This document shows, in pieces, positions 2,578 to 60,660 of a stretch of 64,000 bases of DNA. Position numbers and translations under genes: made by a program. The first letter of the stretch is position 1; each line of letters begins with the position of its first letter. Source of the DNA: a bacterium. Its GTDB lineage: Bacteria > SAR324 > JACQKK01. The notes under the pieces are model-generated. The model did not search any database. It was not told the origin of the DNA and was given only the letters and a program-made list of their open reading frames with translations. The DNA lies in contig OZ251219.1 of the NCBI GenBank assembly GCA_965240465.1, positions 448,001-512,000 on the forward strand. Direction: 5' to 3'.

Positions 2578-2738
2578 CATTGGACTACAGAACATTGACA
2601 GAGCAACTAAACCTAGTCCTAAATCTTATTTAATTACTAGTTATTTTTGGGAAATACCGCTTATAAAAAACATCACTATTATGCCTGTTAATTAATAATA
2701 AATAAAATTATCCTTGCCTCAAACATATAATAATAACT

Positions 2739-3374
2739 ATGAAACTATTGACATTTTATATTAGTTTTCTTCTGGTTGGTTGTACCGGAAACATAGATGG
2801 AAAACTCTTTGTCAGAGCTGGAACCGGCCATGCTAAATCCCAGTACAAATTGGGATTACTCTATGAAGAAGGAAAAAGTGTACCCCAAGATTATGCCCAA
2901 GCCAAGAAATGGCTTAAAAAATCGGCTAGAAAAAACTATCCCCAAGCCCAAAACAGCCTAGGAATGATATATCAAAAAGGACTCGGAGTAGAAAAAAACA
3001 GTAAGCTCGCTAAAAAATGGTACCTAAAAGCGGCTGAACAAGGCTTTATGGAGGCTCAATACAATTTGGGATCGCTTTATGAAAAAGGACACGGTGCCCC
3101 AAAAAGCTACTTCAAAGCCCGAGAATGGTACGGAAAAGCCGCCCAACAGGGACATGTCCGAGCTCAGTTCAATTTGGGATTGATCTATCACCGAGGATTA
3201 GGCGTAACCAGAAGCGACTCCAAAGCCCTGAACTTCTTCTATCTAGCCCAAGCAGGAGGCTCTGAAACTGCCAAAAAAATGGTGCTAATCTTAGAAAAAC
3301 GTTTGGACAATATACAAATTTTCCGAGCTCAAAAACTAGCCTCCGTTTTTTACACTCAGTTTCTAGAAAAATAA
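2739..3374 (+). CDS. Sel1-like repeat lipoprotein
   Basis: Lipobox LLVGC after a hydrophobic stretch; about 4 SLR repeats. Confidence 0.9.
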   Translation: MKLLTFYISFLLVGCTGNIDGKLFVRAGTGHAKSQYKLGLLYEEGKSVPQDYAQAKKWLKKSARKNYPQAQNSLGMIYQKGLGVEKNSKLAKKWYLKAAEQGFMEAQYNLGSLYEKGHGAPKSYFKAREWYGKAAQQGHVRAQFNLGLIYHRGLGVTRSDSKALNFFYLAQAGGSETAKKMVLILEKRLDNIQIFRAQKLASVFYTQFLEK

Positions 3375-3408
3375 TAAACCCCCCTCGGATTGACTTGCAC
3401 CAGTAACC

Positions 3409-4206
3409 TTGGCTTATCCCTCTAATATACTGACTAACCCAAAAGAAATGATGAAAACCAAATCTAAAAAGCTTTCTTACTCCCTAAAGAACTCAATAAC
3501 TTCAATGTTGTGCTTGCCTGTTTTTGTACTGGTTGGCTGCACTATTTTACCTGAAGGCTCCTTGCTGGTAAATGCCAAATCTGGCAATCCCCAAGCACAA
3601 TATGAACTGGGATTAATATACCAGCTAGGTCAGTCAGTACCTCAAAACCATGCCATCGCCAAAAAATGGTACCAAAAAGCAGCCCTCGCAGGACAACCCA
3701 AGGCGCAAACCCAGCTGGGAATCCTATATAAACAAGGACTAGGAACCCCACTAGATACTCTCAAAGCCAGAAAATGGCTGGAAAGAGCCGTCATCCAAAA
3801 TGATCCCTTAGCCCAATATCATTTAGGTTTGCTTTATAAATCAGGAAACAGCACTCCTAGAAATTACACTAAAGCCCGAAAACTATACCTAGTGGCAGCC
3901 CAGCAAGGACTCGCTGCCGCACACTATGAACTGGGAATGATGTATAGCACCGGCAAAGGAGTCACCAAATCTAATGTCAGAGCCTTGAGCTTCTTTTATC
4001 TCGCTAAAGCAAACGAAGATCCTAAGGGAGACATTGGGATAGAAATTATTGAACTTCAATTGACAAACCAGCAAATTAATCAAGCCCAACAGATAGCCAC
4101 AAACTTTCATAGAAAATACCTAGCCGCAAAACCATTCCCGATCACCAATAATCCGTCTAACAGAAAATTGTACACCACCAAGACCAACTTAGTACCAAAA
4201 AATTAA
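3409..4206 (+). CDS. Sel1-like repeat lipoprotein (true start probably a downstream ATG)
   Basis: VLVGC lipobox; SLR repeats; shares the ALSFFYLA C-terminal motif with the two upstream paralogs. Confidence 0.88.
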   Translation: MAYPSNILTNPKEMMKTKSKKLSYSLKNSITSMLCLPVFVLVGCTILPEGSLLVNAKSGNPQAQYELGLIYQLGQSVPQNHAIAKKWYQKAALAGQPKAQTQLGILYKQGLGTPLDTLKARKWLERAVIQNDPLAQYHLGLLYKSGNSTPRNYTKARKLYLVAAQQGLAAAHYELGMMYSTGKGVTKSNVRALSFFYLAKANEDPKGDIGIEIIELQLTNQQINQAQQIATNFHRKYLAAKPFPITNNPSNRKLYTTKTNLVPKN

Positions 4207-31312: not shown

Positions 31313-32188
31313 ATGCTAGAAGCAAAATTAAAAAGCACCGTACCAACCAGTTCTCCCTTTGGTAATTTGATAGCTGGATTAGCTGGTTCTAACCAAGGAA
31401 TATCTATACTAGATACGGCAAGGTTTCAGTATCAAAAATCACCTTTAAGATATCCTGGTGGTAAAAGTAGGGCTGTAAAGGGTATTCTGTCCGTTTTTCC
31501 TGAAAATATAGAAAGAATGTGTTCTCCCTTTTTAGGAGGCGGCTCAATAGAGCTAGCTTGTTCTTCTTTAGGTATAAAGGTTTATGGTTATGATATATTC
31601 TCGCCACTTATTGATTTTTGGCAGGAGGTACTAAGTAATCCCGAAGAAATAGCAGAAAGAGCTCGGGAGTACTTACCATTATCTAGGTCCGAGTTTTACA
31701 ATTTACAAAAAGCCTATACTAGTTTTAAGGATAAAAAAGAAAGAGCCACTGTATTTTTTGTATTAAATCGTAGCTCTTTTTCAGGCACTACTTTATCAGG
31801 AGGCATGTCTCCTGGTCATAAGAGGTTTAATAATTCTGCCATTGAAAGGCTAGAAAAATTTAGGGATGATAATCTTAATGTGAGCTGTGAATCTTTCCGA
31901 GAAAGCTTATCCAGGCATGAAAATGATTTTTTATATCTTGATCCTCCTTATGCAAATGGGCAAGCTATTTACGGCGATAGAGGGGATACACATAAAGACT
32001 TTGACCATAATGGACTTGCCAATATCTTAAACAAAAGAGACCGATGGATACTATCCTACAATGATTGTAGTACGATCAGGGATTTGTATAAAGATTTCAA
32101 ATTTATCCAATTAGATTGGACCTATGGAATGAATAATAGCAAAAAATCTAATGAGGTATTAATCCTCAGCAAGGACTTAGCTATATGA
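31313..32188 (+). CDS. Dam/D12-class amino-methyltransferase of a type II R-M system
   Basis: KSPLRYPGGKS, PFLGGGS, YLDPPY, LSYND; AT-rich; overlaps the REase start (ATGA). Confidence 0.92.
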   Translation: MLEAKLKSTVPTSSPFGNLIAGLAGSNQGISILDTARFQYQKSPLRYPGGKSRAVKGILSVFPENIERMCSPFLGGGSIELACSSLGIKVYGYDIFSPLIDFWQEVLSNPEEIAERAREYLPLSRSEFYNLQKAYTSFKDKKERATVFFVLNRSSFSGTTLSGGMSPGHKRFNNSAIERLEKFRDDNLNVSCESFRESLSRHENDFLYLDPPYANGQAIYGDRGDTHKDFDHNGLANILNKRDRWILSYNDCSTIRDLYKDFKFIQLDWTYGMNNSKKSNEVLILSKDLAI

Positions 32189-33090
32189 GTCAGGTAAAAT
32201 CAGGCAAGGCTTTTGAATATGGAATGATATGGCAACTGGAAAATATTATTAAATGTAACATAGAAGAAAATAAATCGTTAAATGTTGCCAGATCTTGTTA
32301 TTTAGATTGCACAGAAGAAGAACAAAATAATATACTAAAAGCCTCGGACGAAATTCTAATGTTTTTACTTGCACACGATAGTAGGCTAAGTGGTGGAAGA
32401 TATAAGGCTTTATTGCAATCTGATATGAAAGGTAAATATGGGGATGTTCGGGATGTCATAATATATGATACCCAGAGAGGACATGAAATAGGATTATCTT
32501 TGAAAAATAGGCATACAGCGGTGAAACACTCAAGGTTATCTGAAAATATAGACTTTGGTAAAAAATGGTTGAATATTCCAAATACACAGGAATATAAAAA
32601 TAAAATTTCTCCTATCTTTAGAGATCTAAGGATAAGAAAAGATAAAAAGGAATTCTGGAGAAATATAAACGACAAGGAAGAACTGTTTTATCTACCTATA
32701 CTTTATGAATTTGTGGATGAAGTAAAAAGGCTTTACCAAATAAATAATAAGGCGGTATCTGAGGATTTGTTGAGATACTTACTTGGAAAATATGATTTCT
32801 ACAAGATAGTAAAAGAAAATGGATGTGTGTCTATACAGTCATTTAGCATTTTTGGATCATTAAAATGGGGTAAGAAAATCCCCCTACCAGAAAAGATAAT
32901 AGAAATTGCCTTAAAGGAAAAATCTCGCACTACTGTTGTTATAGTATTTGACAAAGGTTGGCAAATATCTTTTAGAATACATAATGCAAAAAGTAGGGTA
33001 GAACCTTCATTAAAATTTGATATACAGATAGTAGGATCTCCTTCTATTTCCAGACATGAAATAGAATATAAAATGGCTAAAACCGTGTAA
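32185..33090 (+). CDS. HaeIII-family type II restriction endonuclease
   Basis: GKAFEY, LQSD..G..GDVRD, IGLSLKNRHTAVKHSRLS, FRIHNA..RVEPSLKFDIQ. Confidence 0.85.
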   Translation: MSQVKSGKAFEYGMIWQLENIIKCNIEENKSLNVARSCYLDCTEEEQNNILKASDEILMFLLAHDSRLSGGRYKALLQSDMKGKYGDVRDVIIYDTQRGHEIGLSLKNRHTAVKHSRLSENIDFGKKWLNIPNTQEYKNKISPIFRDLRIRKDKKEFWRNINDKEELFYLPILYEFVDEVKRLYQINNKAVSEDLLRYLLGKYDFYKIVKENGCVSIQSFSIFGSLKWGKKIPLPEKIIEIALKEKSRTTVVIVFDKGWQISFRIHNAKSRVEPSLKFDIQIVGSPSISRHEIEYKMAKTV

Positions 33091-41563: not shown

Positions 41564-42487
41564 TTAATTTACTGCCAGCCTATCATAAGTAGGAGTCATT
41601 AAATTATTTATAAGGTTATGTTTCCTTTGTTTTGGTGAATTTTCAATCCTGTTCTTTGATAACTCTAAGTATTCTAATTCTGTATCATAACCTATACACT
41701 TTCGGTTATTTTGCACCGATACCAAAGCAGTCTGCCCACTACCTAAAAATGGATCCAGTATGGTATCTCCTTCTTGTGAGTATAACAATAATACCCGACG
41801 TACCAGTTCTTCTGGATATGGGCAAGGATGATTAATTGTTCGCGGCGGTACAGGAGCGATATGCCATATATTATTGGCAATATCTTTGGTGAATAATTCA
41901 TCAACTGCTATGGCTTCTTTTTTGCCTCTACGCATGGCTCCTTCTTTTCTAAATAGTAAAATGTACTCGGTCATTATGTTGGGATAGTAATACCCCATCC
42001 GTGGATTTTGTATGTAGCTGCCCGCTCTACGCACCCCGCCTGTCACCTTATTCCAGATGATATCTTGATGAAATTTCCAACCCGTCTTTACCATACGTTC
42101 TGTGATTGCCATAGGCGTTGCATAGTGTTTGCCTTTATAAAGTATGGTACCGACTACAATGGCACAAAATCCGCCTTCCATTGTCGTCCGTAGTACTTCT
42201 TGGAATGCTTTTTCAATCTTATCAAGATATTCCTCATAGCTATTTCCAAAGGAAGAGTATTTTCTTTCTCTATGCCATGCTTTGGTATCCTTGGCATGAA
42301 TGTCATAATCAATGGAATTCCAGTATGGCGGTGAGGTAATAGTTAGGGCTATTGACTGATCATGGCATTGATTCATTTCCAAACAAGACTGATTAAAAAA
42401 GGAATAGTTATCTCCTTTTACGCTGTTATTGTTTGCACTGTGGTTTGCACTGTTGTTTATACTGTTGTTTATACTGTTGTTGCTCAT
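41564..42487 (-). CDS. Orphan beta-class N4-C/N6-A DNA methyltransferase
   Basis: ITSPPYW precedes HPCPYP and DPFLGSG; N-terminal Asn/Ser stretch derived from a 12-bp repeat. Confidence 0.92.
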   Translation of the reverse strand: MSNNSINNSINNSANHSANNNSVKGDNYSFFNQSCLEMNQCHDQSIALTITSPPYWNSIDYDIHAKDTKAWHRERKYSSFGNSYEEYLDKIEKAFQEVLRTTMEGGFCAIVVGTILYKGKHYATPMAITERMVKTGWKFHQDIIWNKVTGGVRRAGSYIQNPRMGYYYPNIMTEYILLFRKEGAMRRGKKEAIAVDELFTKDIANNIWHIAPVPPRTINHPCPYPEELVRRVLLLYSQEGDTILDPFLGSGQTALVSVQNNRKCIGYDTELEYLELSKNRIENSPKQRKHNLINNLMTPTYDRLAVN

Positions 42488-46319: not shown

Positions 46320-47345
46320 TTAACCCAGCTTCTTTTTAGAACGCTTACTAGGCTTAGATTTAGTCAAAGCTTTAGCAATGGAGTCTACCATCGGTCGCTT
46401 AAACAAGGCGGGTTTCTTGCGATAGCCTTCATTTTCCCAAGTGACCGAGGGACTAACATGCCCTCCTACCGCTTCACTCATAACATAGACAGCCAAGAAC
46501 GCCTGCGGGTCGCATTCAAACAGTAGTTCTTTAATTTGTCCCAGCTGATGTAGATGAATAATGCAGTAAATCACCTTTAACTTTTTGTTTGAGAAAGCTC
46601 CTACTGCATCAAAGAAGGTAACTCCACGATGCATGTGCCTCATAATGGCTTGGGCTACCTCTTCGGGCTGATCAGTGATGATCTGTACTGCTCGCTTTTG
46701 TGAAAAACTAGTCAGCAATTTTTCAAACACGATCCCAAATACCCACATGTACAAGGCAGAGTACAGCAATATATCTAAATTGGCATAAAACAGGGCCCCC
46801 AATAGATTGAGCCCATTAACCACATTAAAAGTGGTGCTGGTAGGCATCGCAAATTTTTTCTTCATGTACATGGCCAGTATTCTTTGCCCCCCGCCTGAGC
46901 CTCCTGCTCGCACTACCACCCCGATTCCCACTCCTAAAATCACCCCTGCCATAATGCATTTGAGTACGTCATTTTCTGGCAATTCCAACGATATCCCCTT
47001 GGTAGCTTCTAGTAAGAAGCTCAGCATCAACATACCAATGAACGAAATAACTGTGTGACGCAGGTGATGCTCACGCCAACCCAATATAAAAACGGGAATG
47101 TTTATCACAAGATAAATCACCCCCAAGGGTACCCGATGATCAAAAACGTAATAAAGCAGAATGCTAGTCCCTGCTAATCCCGAAGGAACTAACCCAAACA
47201 CCAGCACCACTGCATTTACTCCGATGCTCATCAAGCTAAGCCCTATGAGGGTTATAAGCAACAGAATGTAAAAACGCTTAGTGCATAAATAAACCCGTAC
47301 TTCACTTAGCTCAAGGCGTATGCGTCCAACGAATTCGCTATTCAC
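46320..47345 (-). CDS. YitT family membrane protein (DUF2179 C-terminus)
   Basis: SGLAG, INIPVF, AGGSGGG, RGVT...GAFS, DPQAF. Confidence 0.88.
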   Translation of the reverse strand: MNSEFVGRIRLELSEVRVYLCTKRFYILLLITLIGLSLMSIGVNAVVLVFGLVPSGLAGTSILLYYVFDHRVPLGVIYLVINIPVFILGWREHHLRHTVISFIGMLMLSFLLEATKGISLELPENDVLKCIMAGVILGVGIGVVVRAGGSGGGQRILAMYMKKKFAMPTSTTFNVVNGLNLLGALFYANLDILLYSALYMWVFGIVFEKLLTSFSQKRAVQIITDQPEEVAQAIMRHMHRGVTFFDAVGAFSNKKLKVIYCIIHLHQLGQIKELLFECDPQAFLAVYVMSEAVGGHVSPSVTWENEGYRKKPALFKRPMVDSIAKALTKSKPSKRSKKKLG

Positions 47346-47653
47346 AATGTCTTCTCACGATGCCTTTTCACGATGCCCTCTCACAATGCCTTTTCACGAT
47401 GCCTTCTCACAATGCCTTTTCACGATGCCCTCTCACAATGCCCTTTCACAATGCCTTCTTACAATGCCTTTTCACGATGCCTTCTCACAATGCCTTTTCA
47501 CGATGCCTTCTCACAATGCCCTTTCACAATGCCTTTTCACGATGCCTTTTCACGATGCCTTTTCACGATGCCCTTTCACAATGCCTTTTCACGATGCCCT
47601 TTCACAATGCCTATTCACAATGCCCTCTCACAATGCCTTTTCACGATGCTTTT
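47342..47653. repeat. 13-bp minisatellite (tcacratgccYtY, about 24 copies) beginning at the yitT start codon
   Basis: Direct reading. Confidence 0.96.
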
Positions 47654-47786
47654 TCTTAATGTCCCGCTATGGAAATTAATTTAGAACGAGGTGTGATCCT
47701 ATTCACAACATTACTAACTTTCTTGCTAAAAAATGGCATAATAAAAGTCATTGGTGAATACAATCTTTTGGTGGTTATAACTTGCA

Positions 47787-49819: not shown

Positions 49820-50296
49820 CTATCCTTTGAAAAAATCATCAACAAACTCTCTGTCCTTGCATTTCTCCAACAATATCCAATTGTTTTTTGCTTTTGGTAT
49901 TTTATTCACCGATAGACTTCCCTGTCCTAGTTGCACAATATAGAGGGTGGGAATGAAATAAAAATTGATCCTTCTTTCCCCATTGTCACGTTCCGACTGC
50001 ACCCCGACAACTACGTCCGAAGTTTCAGTAGTTTGAGTATATTCCTTTACCCCAGATTTATACTCCCGATCTACACCGCCCCTCACCCCGCCCACAAACG
50101 ACACCGAACTGCCACTGACGGTTTTTACCTGAACTCTGATGATACAAGAATCTAATTCCACCACGATGTCATAAGTTGAATGAGGTAAATCAACCCGAGA
50201 AGCATTATAACCTCTTTCCAGTAGAGCAGCTAGCATTCTGCTTTCATTGGCGAATCCTTTTGCTGATGCTAGTTTGCCCTTATTTGTCTCTACCAT
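49820..50296 (-). CDS. Small PD-(D/E)xK endonuclease, probable restriction enzyme
   Basis: E..., YDIVVE...IRVQVKT; start overlaps the MTase stop. Confidence 0.8.
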   Translation of the reverse strand: MVETNKGKLASAKGFANESRMLAALLERGYNASRVDLPHSTYDIVVELDSCIIRVQVKTVSGSSVSFVGGVRGGVDREYKSGVKEYTQTTETSDVVVGVQSERDNGERRINFYFIPTLYIVQLGQGSLSVNKIPKAKNNWILLEKCKDREFVDDFFKG

Positions 50297-51579
50297 TTTT
50301 TAAGTACCAGTACATGATCTTCTTCTATGCGTTCCCTACGGGGAATTTTAATAAAGTGATTGATGATGCCCGACTCAAAACGGCACTCCACTTGATAACC
50401 AAGCTGAGGAGCAACATCTTTAAGATATCGCCAAGTTTCAAAAGGATGTCCCCTGATAATGTTACTGCCGATCACCATTACGTACCTTCCTCCTTTTTTT
50501 AAGACCCGATACACTTCCTGCATATTCAGCACCATGTCTTGAATAAATTTATAGGCAATATATCCTCGGCGAGGATCTGTTTGATAAATTGATTTAATAA
50601 CCGCATCGGCTGTTTTTATTCCAGTCTGGTGTAGGTGAACATAATCTTGGGCACTTACAATTTCTGTACCCACATGATTTACTTTTAAGTCCCTCAAAGA
50701 CCCATTAGCAAAACCCAGCCAATACATTTCAAGCTGGTGCGTTCTGGGATAATCAACTGCGTTCATGTAGGGCGGCGAAGTTAAGGCTAGTTCAAATGTT
50801 TCGTTTCCATAGATGTGCAGATCCGTGGCACTAGCATTGTTTGGTATTTCAACTGCGGCTAGTTTTGCGTTGCTAAATTCAAGCATGCCTTGAGTACTAC
50901 TTTTCAAACGCTTTTGGAAAAGGCTGATGGCATATCCAGCTTTAATCACTTTATTAAGCTTTTTGCGTACCACCGTGCGCGTACAGTTGTTATCGGCCTG
51001 AGAAGTTTGGCGGATAATGGAAGAAAAACAAATAAACAAAAAATTTCGCAGGGATGACGAACATTTCAATTTCACAATACCAGCCTTAATAAAGGCTAGT
51101 TCCCTTAAAACATGTGGCTTGAACCATCCATCCCGGTAAGGAAAATATGGCACCCCATTAATCAAACAGGATGAAGAAAAAGTATCCAAATAGGACCTTA
51201 TCCGTTCATTTGCCCTAAGGAGTTCATCCATATTTAGGGGGGTAGTTTTAACTAGGGACAGAAAGCGGGAAAACGGGTCTATATCCACTCCCACACTCCG
51301 ACGCCCCAACAGCATGGCTTCAAGGTTGGCGGTACCGCTCCCCATAAAGGGATCCAGCACTAAATCACCAGCCTTACTGTATCGCCTGATAATCCAACGC
51401 GGCAATTCAGGAAAAAATTTGGCGGGATATTTGTGAATCCCATGGGTATAAGCCCTTTGGTCATTGCTGATGAATAAAAATCGCTGCCCATCTCCAATGT
51501 TAAGGTCAATCGGGATATCCCCCTTAATACAGATTGGCACTGCCTTGCTGGTTTGAATGTGGTGAGATCTTGCTAACAT
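50290..51579 (-). CDS. Alpha-class amino (likely N4-cytosine) DNA methyltransferase
   Basis: THGIHKYPAKF, DPFMGSGT precedes LTSPPY. Confidence 0.92.
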   Translation of the reverse strand: MLARSHHIQTSKAVPICIKGDIPIDLNIGDGQRFLFISNDQRAYTHGIHKYPAKFFPELPRWIIRRYSKAGDLVLDPFMGSGTANLEAMLLGRRSVGVDIDPFSRFLSLVKTTPLNMDELLRANERIRSYLDTFSSSCLINGVPYFPYRDGWFKPHVLRELAFIKAGIVKLKCSSSLRNFLFICFSSIIRQTSQADNNCTRTVVRKKLNKVIKAGYAISLFQKRLKSSTQGMLEFSNAKLAAVEIPNNASATDLHIYGNETFELALTSPPYMNAVDYPRTHQLEMYWLGFANGSLRDLKVNHVGTEIVSAQDYVHLHQTGIKTADAVIKSIYQTDPRRGYIAYKFIQDMVLNMQEVYRVLKKGGRYVMVIGSNIIRGHPFETWRYLKDVAPQLGYQVECRFESGIINHFIKIPRRERIEEDHVLVLKKW

Positions 51580-51781: not shown

Positions 51782-52753
51782 GTGAGTATTGGTCGTAGGG
51801 AGTTATTGCGTTTATTGGGGGCGGGGGTTTCTGGAGCGGCTCTGTGGGGTGTGAATGCGAGGTTGGTAGAGGCGGTGATTGGTGGTGTTCGGCAGCCGAA
51901 GTTGGTGTGGTTGAGGGGTTTGGGTACGGATATATCGTTATTGAGTCAGTTGGGGATGCAGCATCCTAATTTTTTGGATTTGGTACGTTTGGAATGGGTT
52001 TTGGATGGAGGTGATGTTTTTTCGGGGGTTTCGGGGTCTTGGAGTTTTGATCGTCTTGGTGAGAGATTAATTTTGGTATTGGAGGGGGTTCCGAGTGAGT
52101 TGGATTTCAGGAGTGAGTTATGGAGCAATTTACTGTCGCGAGGTCAAGCGGCGATATTGTTAGGGACGGATGTTTGCTATGGTGGGGTTGGGGAGTCTTT
52201 AGGTAGTTTGCGTCTTTTGGAGAAGCAATTGGGGGATGCGGGGGTAGCGGTAGTGAAGTTACCTGGGGTACCTCCTCCGCCGCAGCATTTAACGGGTATT
52301 TTGGCATATATGCAGGAGGTTGGTTTTCCTCGTTTGGATGGTCATCAGCGTCCTTTGCTGTATTATGGTCGGACGGTGTGTGAGGATTGCGAACGCCAGG
52401 GGGATTTACAGCGGGGGCGATTTGCGAGTTATGGGGGAGATGAAGGTTGTTTATTGCGTTTGGGTTGTAAGGGTTTGGTTACTCATAATAGTTGTGCTCG
52501 TCAGCGTTGGAATGGTGGGGAGCAGTGGTGTGTGGGGGTTGGAGGAGCTTGTACGGGTTGTTCTGAGCCGAGTTTTCCTAATCATGGAGGTTTGGGTTTA
52601 AGCGGTGCGATTACTGCGGGTTTGGGAGGATCTCGGTGGTGGCGTAGTTTGGGTTGGAGTGGTTGGGGGTTGACGGGTTTGGCAGGTTTGGCTTGGGGGT
52701 TAGAGGGATTGCGGGGCTGGTTATTTTCCACCAAGGAAAAGGGATTGGATTAA
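51782..52753 (+). CDS. [NiFe]-hydrogenase small-subunit homolog (Tat-exported, C-terminal TM anchor) lacking proximal-cluster ligands
   Basis: GRRELL Tat-like motif; CEDC..GCLLRLGCKG..NSC..RWNGG..WC..GGACTGCSEPSFP; N-terminal CxxC absent; PGCPP replaced by PGVPP. Confidence 0.88.
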   Translation: MSIGRRELLRLLGAGVSGAALWGVNARLVEAVIGGVRQPKLVWLRGLGTDISLLSQLGMQHPNFLDLVRLEWVLDGGDVFSGVSGSWSFDRLGERLILVLEGVPSELDFRSELWSNLLSRGQAAILLGTDVCYGGVGESLGSLRLLEKQLGDAGVAVVKLPGVPPPPQHLTGILAYMQEVGFPRLDGHQRPLLYYGRTVCEDCERQGDLQRGRFASYGGDEGCLLRLGCKGLVTHNSCARQRWNGGEQWCVGVGGACTGCSEPSFPNHGGLGLSGAITAGLGGSRWWRSLGWSGWGLTGLAGLAWGLEGLRGWLFSTKEKGLD

Positions 52754-52763
52754 GGTTGGGCTG

Positions 52764-54224
52764 ATGGGATTTTCGGTAAAAAGTTGGTCTGAGAGAGTAC
52801 GAGTAGAGGGGGGGCTGAGCCTTCTTGAAGATGAGCGAGGGCTAATACGCTTAGGGGGGGGACGCTGGCGGAAGATAGAGCACCTATTACGCGGTCGTCC
52901 CCCATTGGAGGCCGTGCAGCTAACTCAGCAAATCAGCGGTGATAGCGGAGTATCCCATGCTTTGGCAGCCCTGCGTGCCTGCGAACAGGCAATGGAGATC
53001 AAGCCCTTAGAGCAAGGCTTGCTACTACGCGAGCTACTTTATGGATTGTCTCAGTTACATGGTCATGTGCGTCATTTTTACTTTCAGGTGTTGCCAGATT
53101 ACTTGCCTGCCCGAGCCCTAAAAAGCTACCGCGGCAAAAACATCGCCCTGCTTAAGGCAGCTAAACTATATACTTCGGCTGCGGGGCAAGATAAAAAATT
53201 CACCTCTGGTTTTAGCTACCTAGAACATCAAAAATTATTAGAGCATCAGTACGATTCTCTCAACGGACTTGCCAATCTGCAACGCATGCTAGCCGTGCTA
53301 GGAGGCAAATTCCCCATGGTGATGTCCCTAGCCCCAGGCGGTCTTACTACTAAAATTGATGACCATAGCTTGTTAAGAATCAAGCGGCTGTTCAACAACC
53401 TCCCCCCGCTGGTGGAAACTCAACTGACCCCAGATATTGCCCTCTTGCTAAATAAACATCCCCTCTTAAAAATCCAAGGACAAAGCCCAATCGCATTTCT
53501 TAGCCTCGGATCCGAAAACGCCACCGTAGAACTCAATGCCGATCCATTTGCAGCCGGGATCCTCACTAATTCCAAGCTCCAACCCCTACCACTAAACTTT
53601 ATAGAAGATATCTCCCACAGCTTCTATCGCCTCTCCCGACCAAAACATATCCTGAAACCCGATCCCCAAAAAACTACCGCCTATAGCTGGATCAAAGCAC
53701 CCCGAAATCAAAATCAACCCCTCCAAGTAGGACCCCTTGCCAGACTAGCCGTCTCTAATCTCACCAGCCACAACCTCCCGAGAGGTACTCTGCTTAACGA
53801 ATTTCAAACCCTCTTTCAAAAACCACCTCACCAAATCAATAATGTCGCCGCTAGGCTGCTCGCTTGCTCCATTGAATCCCGTATACTCCTTCAGCATATC
53901 CAAAATCTGATACTCCAAATTAAACCCAACCAAAAAACCTCCGTCTCCTATCTCCCCTCGCTTAAACATCAACAAGCCTGGGGACATGCCGAAGCCCCCG
54001 CAGGTAGCATCAGCCACCACCTAGTACTTAAAAATGGACGCATCCATCACTACAACATCATCGCCCCAAGCACTTGGAACGGCTCCCCCCTTGACGATAA
54101 AAAACTCGCTGGACCCCTAGAATCAGCCCTCAATCACCGCAATACCAGACCTGACCTCACTCCCCTCACCGCCAACCGCATTATCAATAGCTTCGGCTTC
54201 AGCTCCAGCGATGCCATCCACTAA
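52764..54224 (+). CDS. [NiFe]-hydrogenase large-subunit homolog lacking all four Ni-Fe cysteines
   Basis: RVEGG, IEHLLRGRPP, HVRHFYF, LGGKFP..PGG, YSWIKAPR, VGPLARL, EAPAGSISHH, YNIIAPSTWN; L1 reads QQISGDS and L2 reads SFGFSSSDAIH*. Confidence 0.88.
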   Translation: MGFSVKSWSERVRVEGGLSLLEDERGLIRLGGGRWRKIEHLLRGRPPLEAVQLTQQISGDSGVSHALAALRACEQAMEIKPLEQGLLLRELLYGLSQLHGHVRHFYFQVLPDYLPARALKSYRGKNIALLKAAKLYTSAAGQDKKFTSGFSYLEHQKLLEHQYDSLNGLANLQRMLAVLGGKFPMVMSLAPGGLTTKIDDHSLLRIKRLFNNLPPLVETQLTPDIALLLNKHPLLKIQGQSPIAFLSLGSENATVELNADPFAAGILTNSKLQPLPLNFIEDISHSFYRLSRPKHILKPDPQKTTAYSWIKAPRNQNQPLQVGPLARLAVSNLTSHNLPRGTLLNEFQTLFQKPPHQINNVAARLLACSIESRILLQHIQNLILQIKPNQKTSVSYLPSLKHQQAWGHAEAPAGSISHHLVLKNGRIHHYNIIAPSTWNGSPLDDKKLAGPLESALNHRNTRPDLTPLTANRIINSFGFSSSDAIH

Positions 54225-54248
54225 CACCACTGCTACCCAAACCCGCTG

Positions 54249-54731
54249 ATGAACCTCATCAACCGACAACTGCTCCTCCAAATAGCTCCCCTGCGTTGGA
54301 TACTAGGACGCAAAAATACCCTCGCCCGACCATATCCCCTATACCTAGCCCTAACTGCCACCATATTCTCAGCCGAAATCATCCGTCTGGCTCGCCATAC
54401 CCTAAACTACCATACGTACCAACTCACCCTCGCCTTCCACATCCTCAGCGGTTCTCTGTTGACCATCTTCTTCATCAAGCGTATGATCCAAACGGCATAT
54501 TCCATGTCTCACCAACTCCAAAAACCAAAACCCCTCCCCCTGACCTTTAACTTAGTACTCACTCTCCTGATCCTCACTGGACTCCTGCGTACCTTCCAAC
54601 TACGAACCAACCTCAGCTTACCCAGCTGGGTCGCTCCGCTCCACGGAGCTCTAGCACCTTATATCTGGCTTCTGGTGCTTCTATTATTCAAGCAATTTTG
54701 GAGCAAATCTAAGAAATCCCATCTAAAGTGA
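54249..54731 (+). CDS. Four-TM membrane protein, probable reduced cytochrome b (HyaC/FdnI-like) subunit
   Basis: Four hydrophobic helices; AFHILSG in TM2, LILTG in TM3, PLHGAL in TM4; third gene of the operon. Confidence 0.6.
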   Translation: MNLINRQLLLQIAPLRWILGRKNTLARPYPLYLALTATIFSAEIIRLARHTLNYHTYQLTLAFHILSGSLLTIFFIKRMIQTAYSMSHQLQKPKPLPLTFNLVLTLLILTGLLRTFQLRTNLSLPSWVAPLHGALAPYIWLLVLLLFKQFWSKSKKSHLK

Positions 54732-55023: not shown

Positions 55024-56826
55024 ATGGCTAATGAACGCAAGACTGAAAATATAGTTAGAAAACATTTCTATCAATTTTCAGATTCCATATCAATAGAAGA
55101 ACAAAGTTCTGATAACCCTAAAATTGATAAATTGCTTAGAAATGCGTCTAAAAAGGGGTTGGGTAAAGGTTATCCTGAATTTATTATTACTCATAATACT
55201 AATTCTGATTTACTAATTGTTATTGAATGTAAGGCAAATATTTTAAAGCATGAAAGTAATGATAAAGATAAATATTCTGAGTTTGCAGTTGATGGAGTTT
55301 TACTTTACGCTTCTTATTTGTCAAAAAGCTATGATGTGTTAGCTGTTGCAGTAAGTGGAGAAGAAGAATCATCATTAAGGATTTCTCATTTCCTACATCT
55401 AAAAAATGATAAAAAATCCACTAAAATTTTTGGAGGCAAACTGCTATCTGTTGATAATTATTTAAATGGATATTTGGAAAAACCAGAAAAAATAAATCAA
55501 GATTATAATACGCTTTTATACTTTACAAAAAAATTAAACAAAAAGTTACATGGTTATAAAATTCCTGAAGACAAAAGAAGCTTATTAATTAGTTCAATTT
55601 TAATCGCACTAGAAGCCAATAGTTTTAAAGAATCTTATTCTTCAGATAAGAGACCTAAAGATTTAGCTGGTAGACTTGTTCAAACTGCTACTAATGAATT
55701 AGAAAATGCTAATATCACAGGGAGGAAACTTCAATACATAAATACTGCATTTGGTTTTATAAAAGAAGATACTTCTTTATCTGAAACAGAAAATGTCTTA
55801 AAAGAAATTATTTATGACATTGATGAAAATATAAATAATTTTACCAAAAATAACAAATATACTGATGTTTTAGGACAATTCTATATTGAATTTTTAAGAT
55901 ACTCAAACAGTGATAAGGGTCTCGGGATCGTTTTAACCCCTCCACATATTACAGAATTTTTTGCAGATTTAGCACAAGTCGATAAAGATTCAATTGCTTA
56001 TGATAACTGTACAGGAACAGGCGGATTTTTAATTAGTGCTATGAAAAAAATGATTGAAGATGCAAAAGATGATGAAGAAAAAATCAAAGAAATAAAATTA
56101 AAACAACTTATTGGAACAGAATATCAACCACATATTTTTGCTTTGGCAGTTTCAAATATGTGTATCCACCAAGACGGAAAAACAAATATTACAAAGGGTA
56201 GTTGTTTTGATAAAAAAGTTATTGATGCAATAAAAAGTGAAAAGCCCACAGTCGGATTTTTAAATCCTCCTTATAAATCAAATAAAAAAGACGATACAGA
56301 CGAATTAAAATTTATTTTAAATAATTTAGATTGTTTAGTTCATGATGGAACCTGTGTTGCTATTGTGCCAATGCAAAGTGCCTTAGCGACCAGCGGTAAA
56401 GTTTTAGGATTTAAAAAGATGCTTCTTGAAAAACACACATTAGAAGCGGTTTTATCGATGCCTAATGAATTGTTTCATAATTCAAAGGTAAACGTTGTTT
56501 CTTGTGTTATGGTTTTTAGGGCCCATAAACCACATTTAGAAAACAAAAAAACATTTTTTGGTTATTTTAAAGATGATGGATTTGTTAAAACAAAAAATAG
56601 AGGTAGAGTAGATGCTGACAATAAATGGAAAGTAATAAGAGACAGATGGTTATCTGCTTACAGCAATAAAGAAAACATTACAGGTTTTAGCGTTATGCAA
56701 AAAGTAACATCACATGATGAATGGTGTGCTGAGGCTTATATGGAAACTGATTATTCAAATTTAACAGAAAAAGATTTCATTAATACAGTTAAAGAATATA
56801 TTGCTTTTAGGGTAAAGTATGGATAA
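55024..56826 (+). CDS. BcgI-like (type IIB/IIG) restriction-modification alpha subunit: endonuclease plus N6-A MTase
   Basis: GYPEFII...VIECKA nuclease; LGIVLTP, DNCTGTGGFL, FLNPPY; very AT-rich. Confidence 0.88.
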   Translation: MANERKTENIVRKHFYQFSDSISIEEQSSDNPKIDKLLRNASKKGLGKGYPEFIITHNTNSDLLIVIECKANILKHESNDKDKYSEFAVDGVLLYASYLSKSYDVLAVAVSGEEESSLRISHFLHLKNDKKSTKIFGGKLLSVDNYLNGYLEKPEKINQDYNTLLYFTKKLNKKLHGYKIPEDKRSLLISSILIALEANSFKESYSSDKRPKDLAGRLVQTATNELENANITGRKLQYINTAFGFIKEDTSLSETENVLKEIIYDIDENINNFTKNNKYTDVLGQFYIEFLRYSNSDKGLGIVLTPPHITEFFADLAQVDKDSIAYDNCTGTGGFLISAMKKMIEDAKDDEEKIKEIKLKQLIGTEYQPHIFALAVSNMCIHQDGKTNITKGSCFDKKVIDAIKSEKPTVGFLNPPYKSNKKDDTDELKFILNNLDCLVHDGTCVAIVPMQSALATSGKVLGFKKMLLEKHTLEAVLSMPNELFHNSKVNVVSCVMVFRAHKPHLENKKTFFGYFKDDGFVKTKNRGRVDADNKWKVIRDRWLSAYSNKENITGFSVMQKVTSHDEWCAEAYMETDYSNLTEKDFINTVKEYIAFRVKYG

Positions 56827-57799
56827 AAACATACCTATTAGAGAAATTTTTAGTATTCAATATGGTAATCAATTAGATTTAAACAAGCAAGTTGAGTGTA
56901 AATCTGGAATTAATTTTGTCAATCGTTCTAATAAAAATTTAGGCATATCTACCAAGATTAAAAAGATTGAGGGTATTGAGCCTTTTGAAAAAGGCTTGAT
57001 TACTGTTGCACTAGGTGGGAGCATATTGTCTGCTTTTGTGCAACCATGTCAGTTTTATACAGGACAAAATGTAAAAATTTTAAAACCAAGAGAACCAATA
57101 GATGAAAGTATTAAAATATTTTACTGTATGTGTATATCTCAAAATGCCTATAGATATAGTGCTTTCGGCAGAGAAGCAAATAAAACATTTGATAATTTAT
57201 TAGTCCCACATTCTGATGAATGTAAAAAAATAATTGCTAATTATTCAACACCTAAACAACCATCAGAAAAACCATGTTTAGAAAATAAAGGTCTTAGTCT
57301 ATGGGATAGAGAATGGAGATATTTTAATTTATGTGAATTATTTAATATAAGTGGGTCAAGGAGTTTTACAAAAAAAGAAATTCAAGAATATGGAATAGGG
57401 AATTACCCTTATGTAGTCACTTCGTCAGAAAATAATGGGACAGAAGGCTTTTATAATAAATGTACTGAAAAAGGGAATGTTCTTACTATAGATAGTGCTA
57501 CTGTAGGTAGTTGTTTTTACCAACCTATAGATTTCTCAGCTTCAGATCATGTAGAAAAATTGATACCTAAATTTAGTATGAATGTATTTATTGCACTATT
57601 TTTGCGAACGACTATAAATCTAGAAAGAATCAGATATGGATATGGGAGGAAATTTGCACAAATGAGGATAAAAAATACAAGGATCAAACTTCCAGTCAAA
57701 GAAAGAAAAAAAGAAGCTTACGACCCCGATTGGCAATTTATGGAAGATTATATAAAAGCATTACCTTACAGTAGCAATCTGCAAATTGATGAGTTTTGA
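56819..57799 (+). CDS. HsdS-like specificity (beta) subunit with two TRDs
   Basis: Two repeated halves (FYTGQNV..YSAFGREAN / FSASDHV..YGYGRK), IKLPV...PDWQFMEDYIK; overlaps the alpha-subunit stop. Confidence 0.85.
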   Translation: MDKNIPIREIFSIQYGNQLDLNKQVECKSGINFVNRSNKNLGISTKIKKIEGIEPFEKGLITVALGGSILSAFVQPCQFYTGQNVKILKPREPIDESIKIFYCMCISQNAYRYSAFGREANKTFDNLLVPHSDECKKIIANYSTPKQPSEKPCLENKGLSLWDREWRYFNLCELFNISGSRSFTKKEIQEYGIGNYPYVVTSSENNGTEGFYNKCTEKGNVLTIDSATVGSCFYQPIDFSASDHVEKLIPKFSMNVFIALFLRTTINLERIRYGYGRKFAQMRIKNTRIKLPVKERKKEAYDPDWQFMEDYIKALPYSSNLQIDEF

Positions 57800-57903: not shown

Positions 57904-58788
57904 TTATTGTTGCCAGATTCGTTTCCAGAAGGCGGAGATGGCTGGGCGGTGTTGTGTGGCTTGTTTGGGGTATTGCTGGTGGATATTATGGGCGATTTGT
58001 TGAATATGCAGGCTAGCGGCTGAATGAGGGAATAGTTTAAGTAGGGGTTGTCTATTACGTACTGCGGTAGGGATGGCGGTATCTTGGGGGATATGCCCTA
58101 GCAGGGGGAGAGGTATGTTGAGGAATTGGAAGCAGGCTTGTTGCATTTTTTGGTGTACGTGTTTAGTTTCTTGAGGAGAGCGGGATTGGTTGATGATGAG
58201 TGAGAATTGGGTTTTGTGATGTTGGAGTCGGAGGAGTTTAATAAGGGCATAGGCATCTGTAAAAGAAGTTGGTTCTGGTGTAGTCACCACGATGATTTGG
58301 TCGGCGGCGGCGTTGAATTGGAGTACCTGAGGAGAGATACCGGCGGCGGTATCTAGTATCCAGTCATCGGTGTTCCAGGGTATTTGGGCGAGGTTTTGGA
58401 GCAAGCGAGTTTGTCCTTCAGTTTCTAGTTGTACGAGTTGATTAATTCCTGAGGCTGAGGGCAGGATTTTAATACCACTGGGTCCATTGAGGGCAATATC
58501 TGCGAGGGACAATTTACCATTGAAGGTATCTTCTAGGGTATATTTTGGTTGTATTCCGAGCAGGATGGGTATATTGGCGAGTCCGATATCAAGATCTATC
58601 AGGGTGATTTGTCTTTTAAGTTTAGCTAGTGCGATTGCTAGATTAAGGGCGAGGTTGCTTTTACCGACTCCTCCTTTGCCGCTGGCGATGGAAATAACTC
58701 TTCCTTTTATGGCTGGGCTGGGTGCTAGCGATGCGTGAATACGCCTAAGACTGGTGGCTTGGTCTGCAGACATCAGGGATTGGTGCAT
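57904..58788 (-). CDS. flhG: Flagellar number regulator FlhG/FleN (MinD family)
   Basis: DQATSLR N-terminus, SGKGGVGKS, DLDIGLAN, DTAAGIS, TPEPTSFTDAYALIK; downstream of flhF. Confidence 0.92.
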   Translation of the reverse strand: MHQSLMSADQATSLRRIHASLAPSPAIKGRVISIASGKGGVGKSNLALNLAIALAKLKRQITLIDLDIGLANIPILLGIQPKYTLEDTFNGKLSLADIALNGPSGIKILPSASGINQLVQLETEGQTRLLQNLAQIPWNTDDWILDTAAGISPQVLQFNAAADQIIVVTTPEPTSFTDAYALIKLLRLQHHKTQFSLIINQSRSPQETKHVHQKMQQACFQFLNIPLPLLGHIPQDTAIPTAVRNRQPLLKLFPHSAASLHIQQIAHNIHQQYPKQATQHRPAISAFWKRIWQQ

Positions 58789-58873
58789 TTGATCAGAGGT
58801 GACGACAAGTTTTATGGATGATATTTATGCTTAGCATCCTCTAGTCCGCGTGGGGGTATTTTAGCGGTGTTTT

Positions 58874-59124
58874 TTGGCAGTGTCCTCTTGGCAGCGTTCT
58901 TTTGATGGTGTTCTCTCGGCAGTGTTCCCTCGGCAGTGTCCTCTTGGCAGTGTTTTTTTGATGGTGTTCTCTCAGCAGTGTTCTTTTGGCAGTGTTCTTT
59001 TGGCAGTGTTCTTTTGGCAGTGTCCTCTTGACAGCGTTATCTCGGCAGCGTTCTCTCAGCAGTGTCCTCTCGGCAGCGTTCTCTTGACAGCGTTCGCAGT
59101 GTCCTCTTGGCAGCGTTTTCTCGG
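58874..59124. repeat. 14-bp minisatellite (tggcagtgttcttt-like, about 18 copies) between flhF and flhG
   Basis: Direct reading. Confidence 0.93.
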
Positions 59125-59166
59125 ATAGGGCGTGGTCGGAAACTCAGAGTAGTAGCTTTATCAATT

Positions 59167-60660
59167 TCAAGCTTCGCTGGAGATTTGAAGTAGTAAGTCA
59201 ATCAATCTTTCTGGGGTAGCTATTTCCATATCTTCGGGTACTCGCTGACCGGTGGTCAGGTAGTTAATGGGCAGTTTGAAACGAATAAAGTGATTAAACA
59301 GTGAGCCGCAATGCATACATTCATCCAATTTGGTGAACAAGACCGATTTTAGAGGCAGGCAACCAAATTTGCGGGTAGTATCAATGAGTTCGGCATCTTT
59401 GGTGGTAGCACTGAGTACCAGACAGATGTCCAGCTGGGGATTATTTTGGAACATTCCCTTTAGTTCTTTCATCTGGGGGAGATCACTTTGCGAGCGACCT
59501 GCGGTATCAACCAGTACCACATCGTAGCTTTGGAACTCTTCCAGAGCTCGGTGTAAATCAGTGCGATCTCTCACCACCGATAATGGCAGATTCATTATCT
59601 TGGCATAGGCTTTTAACTGCTCTAAGGCTCCTATCCTGAAGGTGTCCACCGTTATCAAAGCCGTCTTACGCTTATAGCGTAGCACTTGCTCGCTCGCTAG
59701 CTTAGCCACCGTGGTCGTTTTTCCCACCCCCGTACAACCCACCAACACCAACACCTTCTCACCCGATAAACCACCAGTGGTCTTCACTAAACTAGTTAAC
59801 ATCCGTGCCAAAAAAATCTTTACATAAGTGAAATCTTCTCGCTTTTCAGGCGGTAATCGTTTGGCAGCCTGCTCTACCAAACGCTTAGCAAATTTCTCCT
59901 CCAAACCATGAACCACCAAATGCTGCTGCAAACCCATTAAGGTCTCTGGTAAATCCAAACCCACCTTCAAACCCCCTCCCTGCAACGCTTGCACTGCCTG
60001 CCGCATATCTGTTAACTCATGGTGCAACTGACGCATTGCATGACCTCCCAGTCCCTCCTCCTCCTTCACCACTTTTAGCAACTGCTTCAACTGATGAACT
60101 TCACTACATAAACCTCGCAAAACCGAATCCCGCTCCGCCATGCCTGACCGAACAACTTGATCACTAACTTCTACCACCCTCGCTGACCCCCCTCCATCTC
60201 CCCTTCCTCCAAACGAAGTACCCCCACTTGACCCCTCCTGACCTGCCCCCTCCTGACCTGCCCCCTCCTGACCTGCCCCCTCCTGACCTGCCCCCTCCTG
60301 ACCTGACCCCTCGCCAGACGCTCCCCCACCTGCTCTCCCATTTGCTCCCTCGCCAGATGCTCCCCCACCTGCTCTCCCATTTGCCCCCTCAACCACTCCC
60401 TCCTTTTCCTTCGCCGCACTCCCCTCTGCCAATCCTACTGCCTCCCTCTCCATATCAAAACGACCAACCCCCCTCGACTCACCAACACCCCCTTCTTCAG
60501 GCCTCACCGCAGCTACCTCCCATAACTGACGCCTCAAAAACGGAATCCCCACTCTCCGCAACTGACGAGTAGATAAAATCAGGGCATCCCCACCCAAATC
60601 CTGACGGGTTTTTTGCAGGGCTTCCCGCATGTCAGCCCCTCGATAGTGCTTCACACCCAT
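59167..60660 (-). CDS. flhF: Flagellar SRP-family GTPase FlhF
   Basis: DLGGDALILST, GCTGVGKTTTVAKLA, DTFRIGA, DTAGRS, TKLDE, GQRVPED. Confidence 0.95.
   Translation of the reverse strand: MGVKHYRGADMREALQKTRQDLGGDALILSTRQLRRVGIPFLRRQLWEVAAVRPEEGGVGESRGVGRFDMEREAVGLAEGSAAKEKEGVVEGANGRAGGGASGEGANGRAGGGASGEGSGQEGAGQEGAGQEGAGQEGAGQEGSSGGTSFGGRGDGGGSARVVEVSDQVVRSGMAERDSVLRGLCSEVHQLKQLLKVVKEEEGLGGHAMRQLHHELTDMRQAVQALQGGGLKVGLDLPETLMGLQQHLVVHGLEEKFAKRLVEQAAKRLPPEKREDFTYVKIFLARMLTSLVKTTGGLSGEKVLVLVGCTGVGKTTTVAKLASEQVLRYKRKTALITVDTFRIGALEQLKAYAKIMNLPLSVVRDRTDLHRALEEFQSYDVVLVDTAGRSQSDLPQMKELKGMFQNNPQLDICLVLSATTKDAELIDTTRKFGCLPLKSVLFTKLDECMHCGSLFNHFIRFKLPINYLTTGQRVPEDMEIATPERLIDLLLQISSEA
60232..60390. 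repeat. 15-bp repeat (QEGAG, 5 copies) and 39-bp duplication (EGANGRAGGGASG, 2 copies) in the FlhF linker
   Basis: Direct reading. Confidence 0.92.

Follow-up and report, generated by a model that had tools for sequence, protein, structure and literature searches.

This analysis concerns a three-gene operon at 51782-54731 of a 64,000-nucleotide (nt) stretch of DNA, hereafter the window, from a SAR324 bacterium (GenBank assembly GCA_965240465.1, contig OZ251219.1, positions 448,001 to 512,000). The operon encodes homologues of the small and large subunits of a group 1 hydrogenase followed by a small membrane protein, and all four cysteines that would ligate the nickel–iron (Ni–Fe) site of the large subunit, together with all four that would ligate the proximal iron–sulfur (Fe–S) cluster of the small subunit, have been replaced. 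In our judgment there is a somewhat better than even case that the operon descends from a [NiFeSe]-type group 1 hydrogenase and now encodes an H2-independent electron-transfer module, one that would be exported by the twin-arginine translocation (Tat) system, anchored in the membrane and built on a large subunit that serves as a cofactor-less scaffold.

The three open reading frames (ORFs) are intact, lie on the + strand and sit exactly where an earlier, sequence-only reading of the window had placed them. The small-subunit homologue occupies 51782-52753 (323 amino acids (aa), GTG start; PF14720, NiFe_hyd_SSU_C, 5e-21), the large-subunit homologue without Ni–Fe ligands 52764-54224 (486 aa; PF00374, NiFeSe_Hases, 7.9e-61), and ORF3, a membrane protein and putative single-haem cytochrome b as judged from an alignment of its orthologues, 54249-54731 (160 aa), with intergenic gaps of 10 and 24 nt. 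Sequencing error at the altered codons, which had been named as a possible source of the pattern, is not seen: two Logan assemblies from a single sample, which may be where the window itself comes from, span the operon's full 2,950 bases with 0 differences, at k-mer depths of 192 and 79. A promoter and terminator scan returned no more sites than were obtained in shuffles.

A functional group 1 hydrogenase carries two Ni-ligating Cys in its L1 motif (RxCGxCxxxH) and two Ni/Fe-ligating Cys in its L2 motif (DPCxxCxxH), and the large subunit of the window has neither pair. Alignment to relatives shows that the ex-L1 motif, residues 55-65 (QQISGDSGVSH; 52926-52958, + strand), has Gln56 in place of Arg and Ser58 and Ser61 in place of Cys, the two serine codons being 52935-52937 and 52944-52946. 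The ex-L2 motif with its stop codon, read directly as SFGFSSSDAIH-stop (54189-54224, + strand), has Phe479 for Pro, Ser480 and Asp483 for the two Cys, and no C-terminal extension. In addition, the Arg of the canonical EAPRG motif is Ala in EAPAG, residues 410-414 (53991-54005, + strand). The sequence-only reading had described QISGDS, GFSSSDAIH-stop, the loss of all four Ni–Fe Cys and the change to EAPAG correctly, and all the scaffold motifs that it listed as kept are found in the translation. It had also listed the missing C-terminal extension alongside the ligand loss. The absence stands but is not specific to the Ni-less state, since most of the 69 nearest canonical relatives (loci L063-L133) stop at the L2 motif or no more than a few residues from it and offer an endopeptidase no extension to cleave; a feature missing from Ni-binding relatives as well need not belong to the ligand loss.

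Around this altered site, the large subunit keeps its fold. Its PF00374 score is 207 bits against a gathering cutoff of 25.8, its AlphaFold2 model has a pLDDT of 89.4 and a pTM of 0.92, and Foldseek aligns the model with [NiFeSe]/[NiFe] large subunits at template modelling (TM) scores of 0.83-0.87 and probability 1.00. Comparison of column conservation between 48 Cys-less and 33 fully canonical large subunits found 32 scaffold columns conserved in both sets and 12 columns that are at least 85% conserved in the canonical set and lost in the Cys-less one. Nine of these 12 (H17, R56, C58, C61, R413, D478, P479, C480 and C483) are first- or second-shell active-site positions in or adjoining L1, L2, the His of RxEGH and the Arg of EAPRG; the other three comprise Tyr162 and two N-terminal positions. 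What has taken the place of the canonical residues is in turn conserved among the 48 Cys-less sequences: Ala at position 413 in 43 of them (0.90 of those aligned, where Arg is found in 0.94 of the canonical set), Phe479 in 0.85, Ser480 in 0.88 and Asp483 in 0.94, position 483 being Asp or Glu in every one.

The pattern is not confined to the window. A survey of 88 species genomes of the phylum found strong large-subunit matches in all 18 other genomes of the window's GTDB family (here f1), in 17 of 19 genomes of family f7 and in the single genome of f6. The remaining two f7 genomes (79% and 68% complete) gave weak matches only, as did 7 of 45 genomes in family f2, and families f3-f5 gave none in 4 genomes. 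The 37 strong loci come from 37 genomes, metagenome-assembled genomes (MAGs) labelled SAR324/Lambdaproteobacteria, and the four ligand Cys are absent from all of them, so that the orthologous operons with the same pattern for which the sequence-only reading had called were found at 37 of the 37 loci examined. The last L2 Cys position is Asp in 35 and Glu in 2 of these copies, while L1 position 60 is Asp in most f1-type sequences and K, H, V, N or S in f7-type ones.

Broader searches were also made. A word-indexed search of 5.8 billion proteins gave 42 matches, the best 35 of which (37-100% identity) are without the four Cys; the other 7 keep the L1 Cys pair. Searching 1.84 billion representatives clustered at 50% identity with a profile gave 4,367 matches at E ≤0.001; of the best 150, the Cys-less family accounts for the 19 full-length sequences with the highest scores (at least 396 bits) and for 13 that are shorter or score lower. 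The best 80 loci of a species-representative genome scan comprised 11 Cys-less loci, all in MAGs labelled SAR324, Lambdaproteobacteria, Deltaproteobacteria or unclassified, and 69 canonical loci from many phyla. In a FastTree phylogeny of 134 full-length large subunits, for which supports are Shimodaira–Hasegawa-like (SH-like) only, the Cys-less family forms one clade of 24 rows with support 100, divided into two subclades, with support 99 each, that carry the f1-type and f7-type motifs. Outside this clade, twelve further group-1-like large subunits (P0059, P0071, P0074, P0084, P0101, P0103, P0121, P0126, P0127, P0149, P0166 and P0185) have lost some or all of their Ni–Fe ligands, and their scatter through the tree suggests repeated independent losses.

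Selection on the operon was assessed from the ratio of nonsynonymous to synonymous substitution rates (dN/dS) by the NG86 method, using four pairs of genomes, each pair from one genus, in which dS is not saturated; the window and its congener, which together make up genus g1 of the survey, were left out as their dS is saturated or undefined. The small subunit gave ratios of 0.05-0.21, the large subunit 0.05-0.42 and ORF3 0.08-0.38, all far below 1 and similar to the 0.03-0.28 of neighbouring genes (flhA, flhB, fliI, fliF, coaE, vanY and the genes for an acyl-CoA dehydrogenase and an S24 peptidase), and two reduced genomes (1.6-1.7 Mb) have retained the operon. Purifying selection acts on each of the three genes throughout a clade of class rank. 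Collectively, the 37 of 37 orthologues, the low dN/dS, the lack of the Hyp genes searched for, the confirmed sequence and the concentration of 9 of the 12 lost columns at the active site bear out the earlier proposal that the ligands were lost selectively from a maintained frame, as in repurposing and not in decay.

The small subunit has undergone a comparable change, which the sequence-only reading had overlooked. In the four proximal-cluster ligand columns (Cys in the canonical sequence P0218), Cys is found in 0 of 36 family members; the residues are mostly D/N/T, N/S/H, D/E and V/I, and T, S, D and V in the window. Relative to 3myr_A and 1frv_A, the proximal motifs GTC and GCPP have become GTD and GVPP, and the small subunit of the window has no Cys before residue 132. 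Two extra Cys lie in the N-terminal domain near the ex-proximal site in 30 of the 36 members, of which the window has the first only (C132; L150); such a pair might make a disulfide bond or be what is left of a metal site.

By comparison, the C-terminal ligands have been kept and extended. The segment at 52379-52561 (+ strand) holds C200, C203, C223, C229, C238, C250, C257 and C260, predicted to bind the distal and medial [4Fe-4S] clusters, and these eight columns are Cys in all 36 family members. When aligned with small subunits of known structure, the protein has Cys200 in place of the His of the distal cluster and Cys250 in place of the Pro of the medial cluster. The latter is presumably the site at which a Cys gives NiFeSe enzymes a [4Fe-4S] medial cluster. 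We infer from these alignments that the small subunit would carry two all-Cys [4Fe-4S] clusters and no proximal cluster. Its family membership is evident from a Foldseek search with the AlphaFold2 model, in which the top matches are hydrogenase small subunits at probability 1.00, and from PF14720 (75.3 bits against 27). Among solved structures it is closest to 3myr_A (1.8e-29), in an alignment confined to residues 119-271, TIGR00391 reaches 103.6 bits against a cutoff of 179.5, and PF01058, the N-terminal small-subunit domain, was not matched by the window's protein in the Pfam search.

Export and membrane anchoring are predicted from both ends of the small subunit. The N-terminal signal region at 51782-51874 (+ strand; translation MSIGRRELLRLLGAG...) has the twin arginines R5-R6 followed by a hydrophobic stretch and a presumed cleavage site. 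A regular-expression search found the RR motif in 34 of 35 family small subunits, the 35th reading RRQA, and the window genome encodes TatC (220.5 bits), so that both the twin-arginine signal and TatC are present. At the other end, residues 286-314 (52637-52723, + strand) form a hydrophobic helix, the predicted C-terminal transmembrane anchor, which the AlphaFold2 model places with confidence, as it does the N-terminal alpha/beta domain.

ORF3 supplies the candidate membrane partner. A gene of 160-200 codons was found by tblastn directly 3' of the large subunit in 26 of the 37 loci, and reading and alignment added two more (L017 and L018). Ten orthologues aligned from both families share about four hydrophobic segments and the invariant residues H64, G68, G111 and H132, with the two histidines encoded at 54438-54440 and 54642-54644 in the window. 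PF01292 was matched by 3 of the 10 orthologues at E ≤0.1, with a best value of 4.9e-8; L023 scored 27.1 bits, below the cutoff of 30.1. Searched as a profile, the ORF3 family matched FdnI (1kqf_C) at 1.2e-5 and, weakly, HyaC (4gd3_A) at 0.31. By their invariance in the alignment, the two His would fit one bis-His haem b.

The genome of the window also speaks against a working hydrogenase. Assembled as one contig of 1.6 Mb and 83.6% complete by marker genes, it holds the operon as its sole PF00374 locus. As the sequence-only reading had said, Pfam annotation shows no hyp or endopeptidase gene at the locus. The genome-wide check that it had proposed gave no match for HypC, HypD or the endopeptidase HycI, HypA, HypB, HypE and Ni transporters being outside the search, and returned for HypF a weak partial match only (39.7 bits against a cutoff of 466, model positions 1-82). 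The maturation machinery of a functional group 1 hydrogenase is therefore lacking for the genes searched. In larger relatives, the 4 of 4 second copies inspected are canonical proteins of 573-575 aa, with RxCGxC, EAPRG and DPCxxCxxH motifs and a 15-16-aa extension. Four defining features of a working hydrogenase are missing from the family: the L1 and L2 motifs, the proximal cluster and the genes for maturation that were searched for.

From these features the following mechanism may be proposed. The small and large subunits would fold in the cytoplasm and cross the membrane together by the Tat system. The small subunit would carry two all-Cys [4Fe-4S] clusters at the ex-distal and ex-medial sites, and ORF3 would carry one bis-His haem b in contact with the quinone pool. 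Electrons would pass, in either direction, between the quinone pool, haem b, the distal cluster, the medial cluster and a partner or small substrate in the periplasm. The role of the large subunit would then be that of a cofactor-less scaffold or docking surface and not of an H2 catalytic centre. Clusters in hydrogenases lie about 12 Å apart; with the proximal cluster gone, the old pocket should be beyond the electron-transfer range of the medial cluster, and a scaffold or docking role is favoured over a new redox-active site for this reason. Judging from the ligands that are missing, the pocket of the former active site has probably lost its electronic connection to the clusters that are left. 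The earlier proposal of repurposing is therefore upheld, while its suggestion of a new redox substrate site of the NuoD/MbsL kind is weakened by the loss of the proximal cluster in the small subunit.

Compared to known systems, the operon combines familiar parts in an unfamiliar way. First, its closest solved relatives, by sequence (family profile 5.9e-71) as well as by fold, are the [NiFeSe]/[NiFe] group 1 enzymes. The [NiFeSe] enzymes of Desulfovibrio vulgaris Hildenborough and Desulfomicrobium baculatum (6z8m, 2wpn, 1cc1) have in common with it the pair of small- and large-subunit genes and a small subunit that bears a Tat signal; the family likewise has what we take to be the fourth medial-cluster Cys of the NiFeSe type. 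Unlike these enzymes, however, the family has lost the four Ni–Fe ligands, the Arg of EAPRG, the Arg of L1, the His of RxEGH and the four proximal ligands, has Cys in place of the distal His, and occurs in the window genome without HypC, HypD or the endopeptidase. Second, the order of small subunit, large subunit and a membrane protein with about four hydrophobic segments, as well as the C-terminal anchor helix, is that of E. coli Hyd-1 (HyaABC, 4gd3). Cytochromes b of the Hya/Fdn type have four His for two haems. Set beside HyaC and FdnI (the cytochrome b556 of formate dehydrogenase-N, 1kqf), ORF3 is a short protein of 160-200 aa in which just two His are invariant.

Third, NuoD/NuoB, MbsL/MbxL and Ehr, which derive from group 4, illustrate the same principle of a large subunit kept under selection after the loss of its Ni–Fe Cys. 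The family differs from these modules in being nearest to group 1 (best NCBIfam and PDB matches), in being Tat-exported and in consisting of a three-gene operon without antiporter-like membrane subunits, and it does not belong among them. Complex I keeps only a proximal-type cluster, N2, beside its remodelled pocket; the family does the reverse, losing the proximal and keeping the distal and medial clusters. Fourth, QrcB of the Qrc complex and ActB of Alternative Complex III are subunits of the molybdopterin family that have no molybdenum and serve as cofactor-less scaffolds. The functional analogy that we favour is with these complexes, in which a quinone-linked Fe–S wire facing the periplasm would be joined to an ex-catalytic scaffold. 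It is an analogy without homology, as Qrc and Alternative Complex III derive from molybdopterin oxidoreductases and contain NrfD-type subunits and c-type cytochromes. No description of Cys-less group 1 homologues came up in full-text literature searches or in the matching passages of PMC8364033, PMC5317091, PMC4853749 and PMC10305171, whose supplementary tables, outside the search, might list these genes as hydrogenases.

Several points weigh against an H2-independent electron-transfer module. Fe–S binding, haem binding and assembly of the complex are predictions from sequence. The Fe–S domain of the small-subunit model has a pLDDT of 28-48, which is expected for a model without cofactors but leaves the cluster geometry outside what the model supports. 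The cytochrome-b identity of ORF3 is weak even at the profile level, and the copy in the window itself has no Pfam or NCBIfam match; the earlier assignment of the third gene to cytochrome b thus finds weak support from the family and none from the window's own protein. A complex prediction that combined ORF3 with the C-terminal part of the small subunit, two 4Fe-4S clusters and a haem scored 0.02 against a mark of 0.32 and counts neither way. At the medial-cluster end of the wire, no conserved partner gene common to both families was found.

The respiratory chain of the window genome, furthermore, shows no obvious gap for such a module to fill, as the genome has NuoD, an oxidase of the haem-copper type and apparently an Alternative Complex III. 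Searches of this genome found neither cytochrome bd nor a bc1-type cytochrome b, the latter being absent in 4 of 5 genomes tested. An NrfD-like gene lies beside a degenerate molybdopterin-like ORF of 1,067 aa (C1:1359939-1364002), and the pair, which by its sequence is probably Alternative Complex III, also occurs in the congener. The idea that the operon stands in for a missing bc1 complex was set aside as less likely on account of this apparent Alternative Complex III.

Among the alternatives to an electron-transfer module with a scaffold subunit, the strongest holds that the emptied Ni–Fe and proximal cavity has been turned into a new site of binding or catalysis, for a metal held by non-thiolate ligands or for a small molecule. 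The complex would then be a new enzyme or a sensor, either of a ligand or of redox state. The conserved replacements at positions 413, 479 and 480 and the acidic residue at 483, which is Asp or Glu in 37 of 37 phylum copies, are consistent with such a site, as are the mostly polar ex-proximal columns and the two extra Cys close to them. The large subunit, moreover, is as constrained as the small one, and the N-terminal domain of the small subunit is still predicted to fold with confidence. However, only one acidic residue of the pocket is invariant, and position 60 varies in f7-type sequences. The window's own small subunit has T, S, D and V at the ex-proximal positions and is without one of the extra Cys, and the gap from the pocket to the medial cluster, given the usual spacing, should be too long for fast electron transfer. 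We therefore regard a new site as a real but clearly less probable explanation.

A bolder form of this explanation would make the operon the founding case of hydrogenase-derived, H2-independent periplasmic oxidoreductases. The cavity, lined by Asp/Glu483, Phe479, Ser480, Ala413 and the polar ex-proximal residues, would be an active or sensing site for a substrate other than H2 or for a metal, would be coupled to quinones through the two [4Fe-4S] clusters and haem b, and might be tied to the polar FlhF/FlhG system or to the flagellum, whose genes the operon has adjoined across the clade. We rate this version as unlikely, though not so unlikely as to be set aside.

The complex could instead be a purely structural protein of the periplasm and membrane, its clusters structural or absent. 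Such a role would account for a wire without an obvious end point, for which no partner, substrate or catalytic site was found. It sits poorly, however, with the invariance of the eight cluster Cys and of the two ORF3 His and with the fixation of both ligand upgrades, His to Cys and Pro to Cys. Invariant Cys and His together with ligand upgrades are the pattern expected of a working redox chain, and a structural role accordingly appears improbable.

A further proposal has the complex working with the flagellar or polar machinery; it might, for instance, sense redox state in the periplasm for, or otherwise assist, either the motor or the polar-landmark system of FlhF and FlhG. It derives from the genomic neighbourhood, in which the operon adjoins flagellar genes in two different arrangements. 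In 10 of the 19 f1 loci, the operon and S24-fliR-flhB-flhA-flhF-flhG are divergently oriented. In f7 and f6, 12 of 18 loci place the operon immediately downstream of fliF/fliH/fliI and in the same orientation, most of them with a gene for a metallophosphoesterase. The window and its congener keep flhG and flhF only, at a distance of 3-5 kb from the operon (57904-60660, - strand, in the window). Of the remaining loci, three in f1 and one in f7 have enough flank and show no flagellar gene, and four contigs in f1 and five in f7/f6 end too soon.

The case for a flagellar role is nonetheless thin. FlhA, FlhB, FliR, FliH, FliF, FliE and FlgC were not detectable in either g1 genome, so that both hold the operon without the flagellar export apparatus, and in these two genomes the polar-landmark genes, kept without a flagellum, seem to have another role. 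Conversely, f2 has FlhA in 41 of 45 genomes, yet the large subunit is matched there only in the few weak cases given above, and five f2 flhA loci that were examined have no operon genes nearby. An obligate flagellar link was rejected because of these phyletic patterns. In f7, the operon sits in a tight same-strand array, with tiny gaps, that also holds coaE, vanY, dus and hemE, and adjacency within so packed an array carries little functional weight; the loci without flagellar genes count on the same side, and related genomes are non-independent samples. On balance, a flagellar or polar role seems improbable, slightly more so than a structural one.

The metallophosphoesterase, which has an N-terminal membrane anchor, is encoded immediately upstream of the small subunit in eight f7 loci (L020-L023, L037, L038, L042 and L045) and overlaps it by 1 nt in L021. 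It was rejected as a part of the system, as it is unlinked in the window genome (C1:910076-911113) and absent from f1 loci.

Finally, an operon in decay, an artefact of sequencing or a hydrogenase whose metal site is ligated in an unconventional way, which the scores of both subunits under every curated NCBIfam hydrogenase cutoff might suggest (227 bits against 600 for the large subunit with NF033181), retains almost no probability given intact frames, two concordant assemblies, the same pattern throughout one old clade, low dN/dS, and the lack of ligand Cys, HypC, HypD and endopeptidase.

Other features of the window were recorded beside these. Upstream of the operon lie an N4/N6 methylase and a PD-(D/E)XK nuclease, and downstream of it the M and S subunits of a type I system followed by flhG and flhF. 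They belong to an unusually dense restriction-modification set (31313-33090, 41564-42487, 49820-51579 and 55024-57799) that comprises a D12 methylase with a HaeIII-type endonuclease, two N4/N6 methylases, the PD-(D/E)XK nuclease and the type I M/S genes. The two sets that flank the operon have a G+C content of 0.31-0.37 against 0.50 and interrupt the synteny seen in the congener. The FlhF of the window is about 50% identical to that of a relative and has a low-complexity insert rich in Gly, Ala and Glu. Between flhG and flhF, a 14-nt unit is repeated in tandem in about 16 copies (58867-59117; also periods of 28 and 56), and a 13-nt unit in 24 copies lies at 47341-47655 between a YitT-family gene and a DnaJ-TPR gene; several frames are open through each. 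Three consecutive Sel1-repeat proteins of 535, 211 and 265 aa are encoded at 970-4206, adjoining a SocA/Panacea antitoxin-like gene.

Hydrogenase relatives without Ni are textbook material in group 4, where complex I, Mbs/Mbx and Ehr have shaped ideas on the evolution of respiratory complexes. The operon described here would be a parallel case among Tat-exported group 1 enzymes, in which the link to cytochrome b was kept together with two clusters, the distal and the medial, and both the catalytic site and the proximal cluster were dropped. Scattered ligand losses in other group 1 lineages suggest that the phenomenon is a recurrent one. There is also a practical side to these observations. In databases the large subunit carries the label 'nickel-dependent hydrogenase' and the small subunit that of 'hypothetical protein', and counts of hydrogenases in metagenomes that rely on homology only could over-call H2 metabolism in the SAR324/Lambdaproteobacteria lineage. 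The family itself may provide a natural scaffold for asking what the hydrogenase fold does without its metals.

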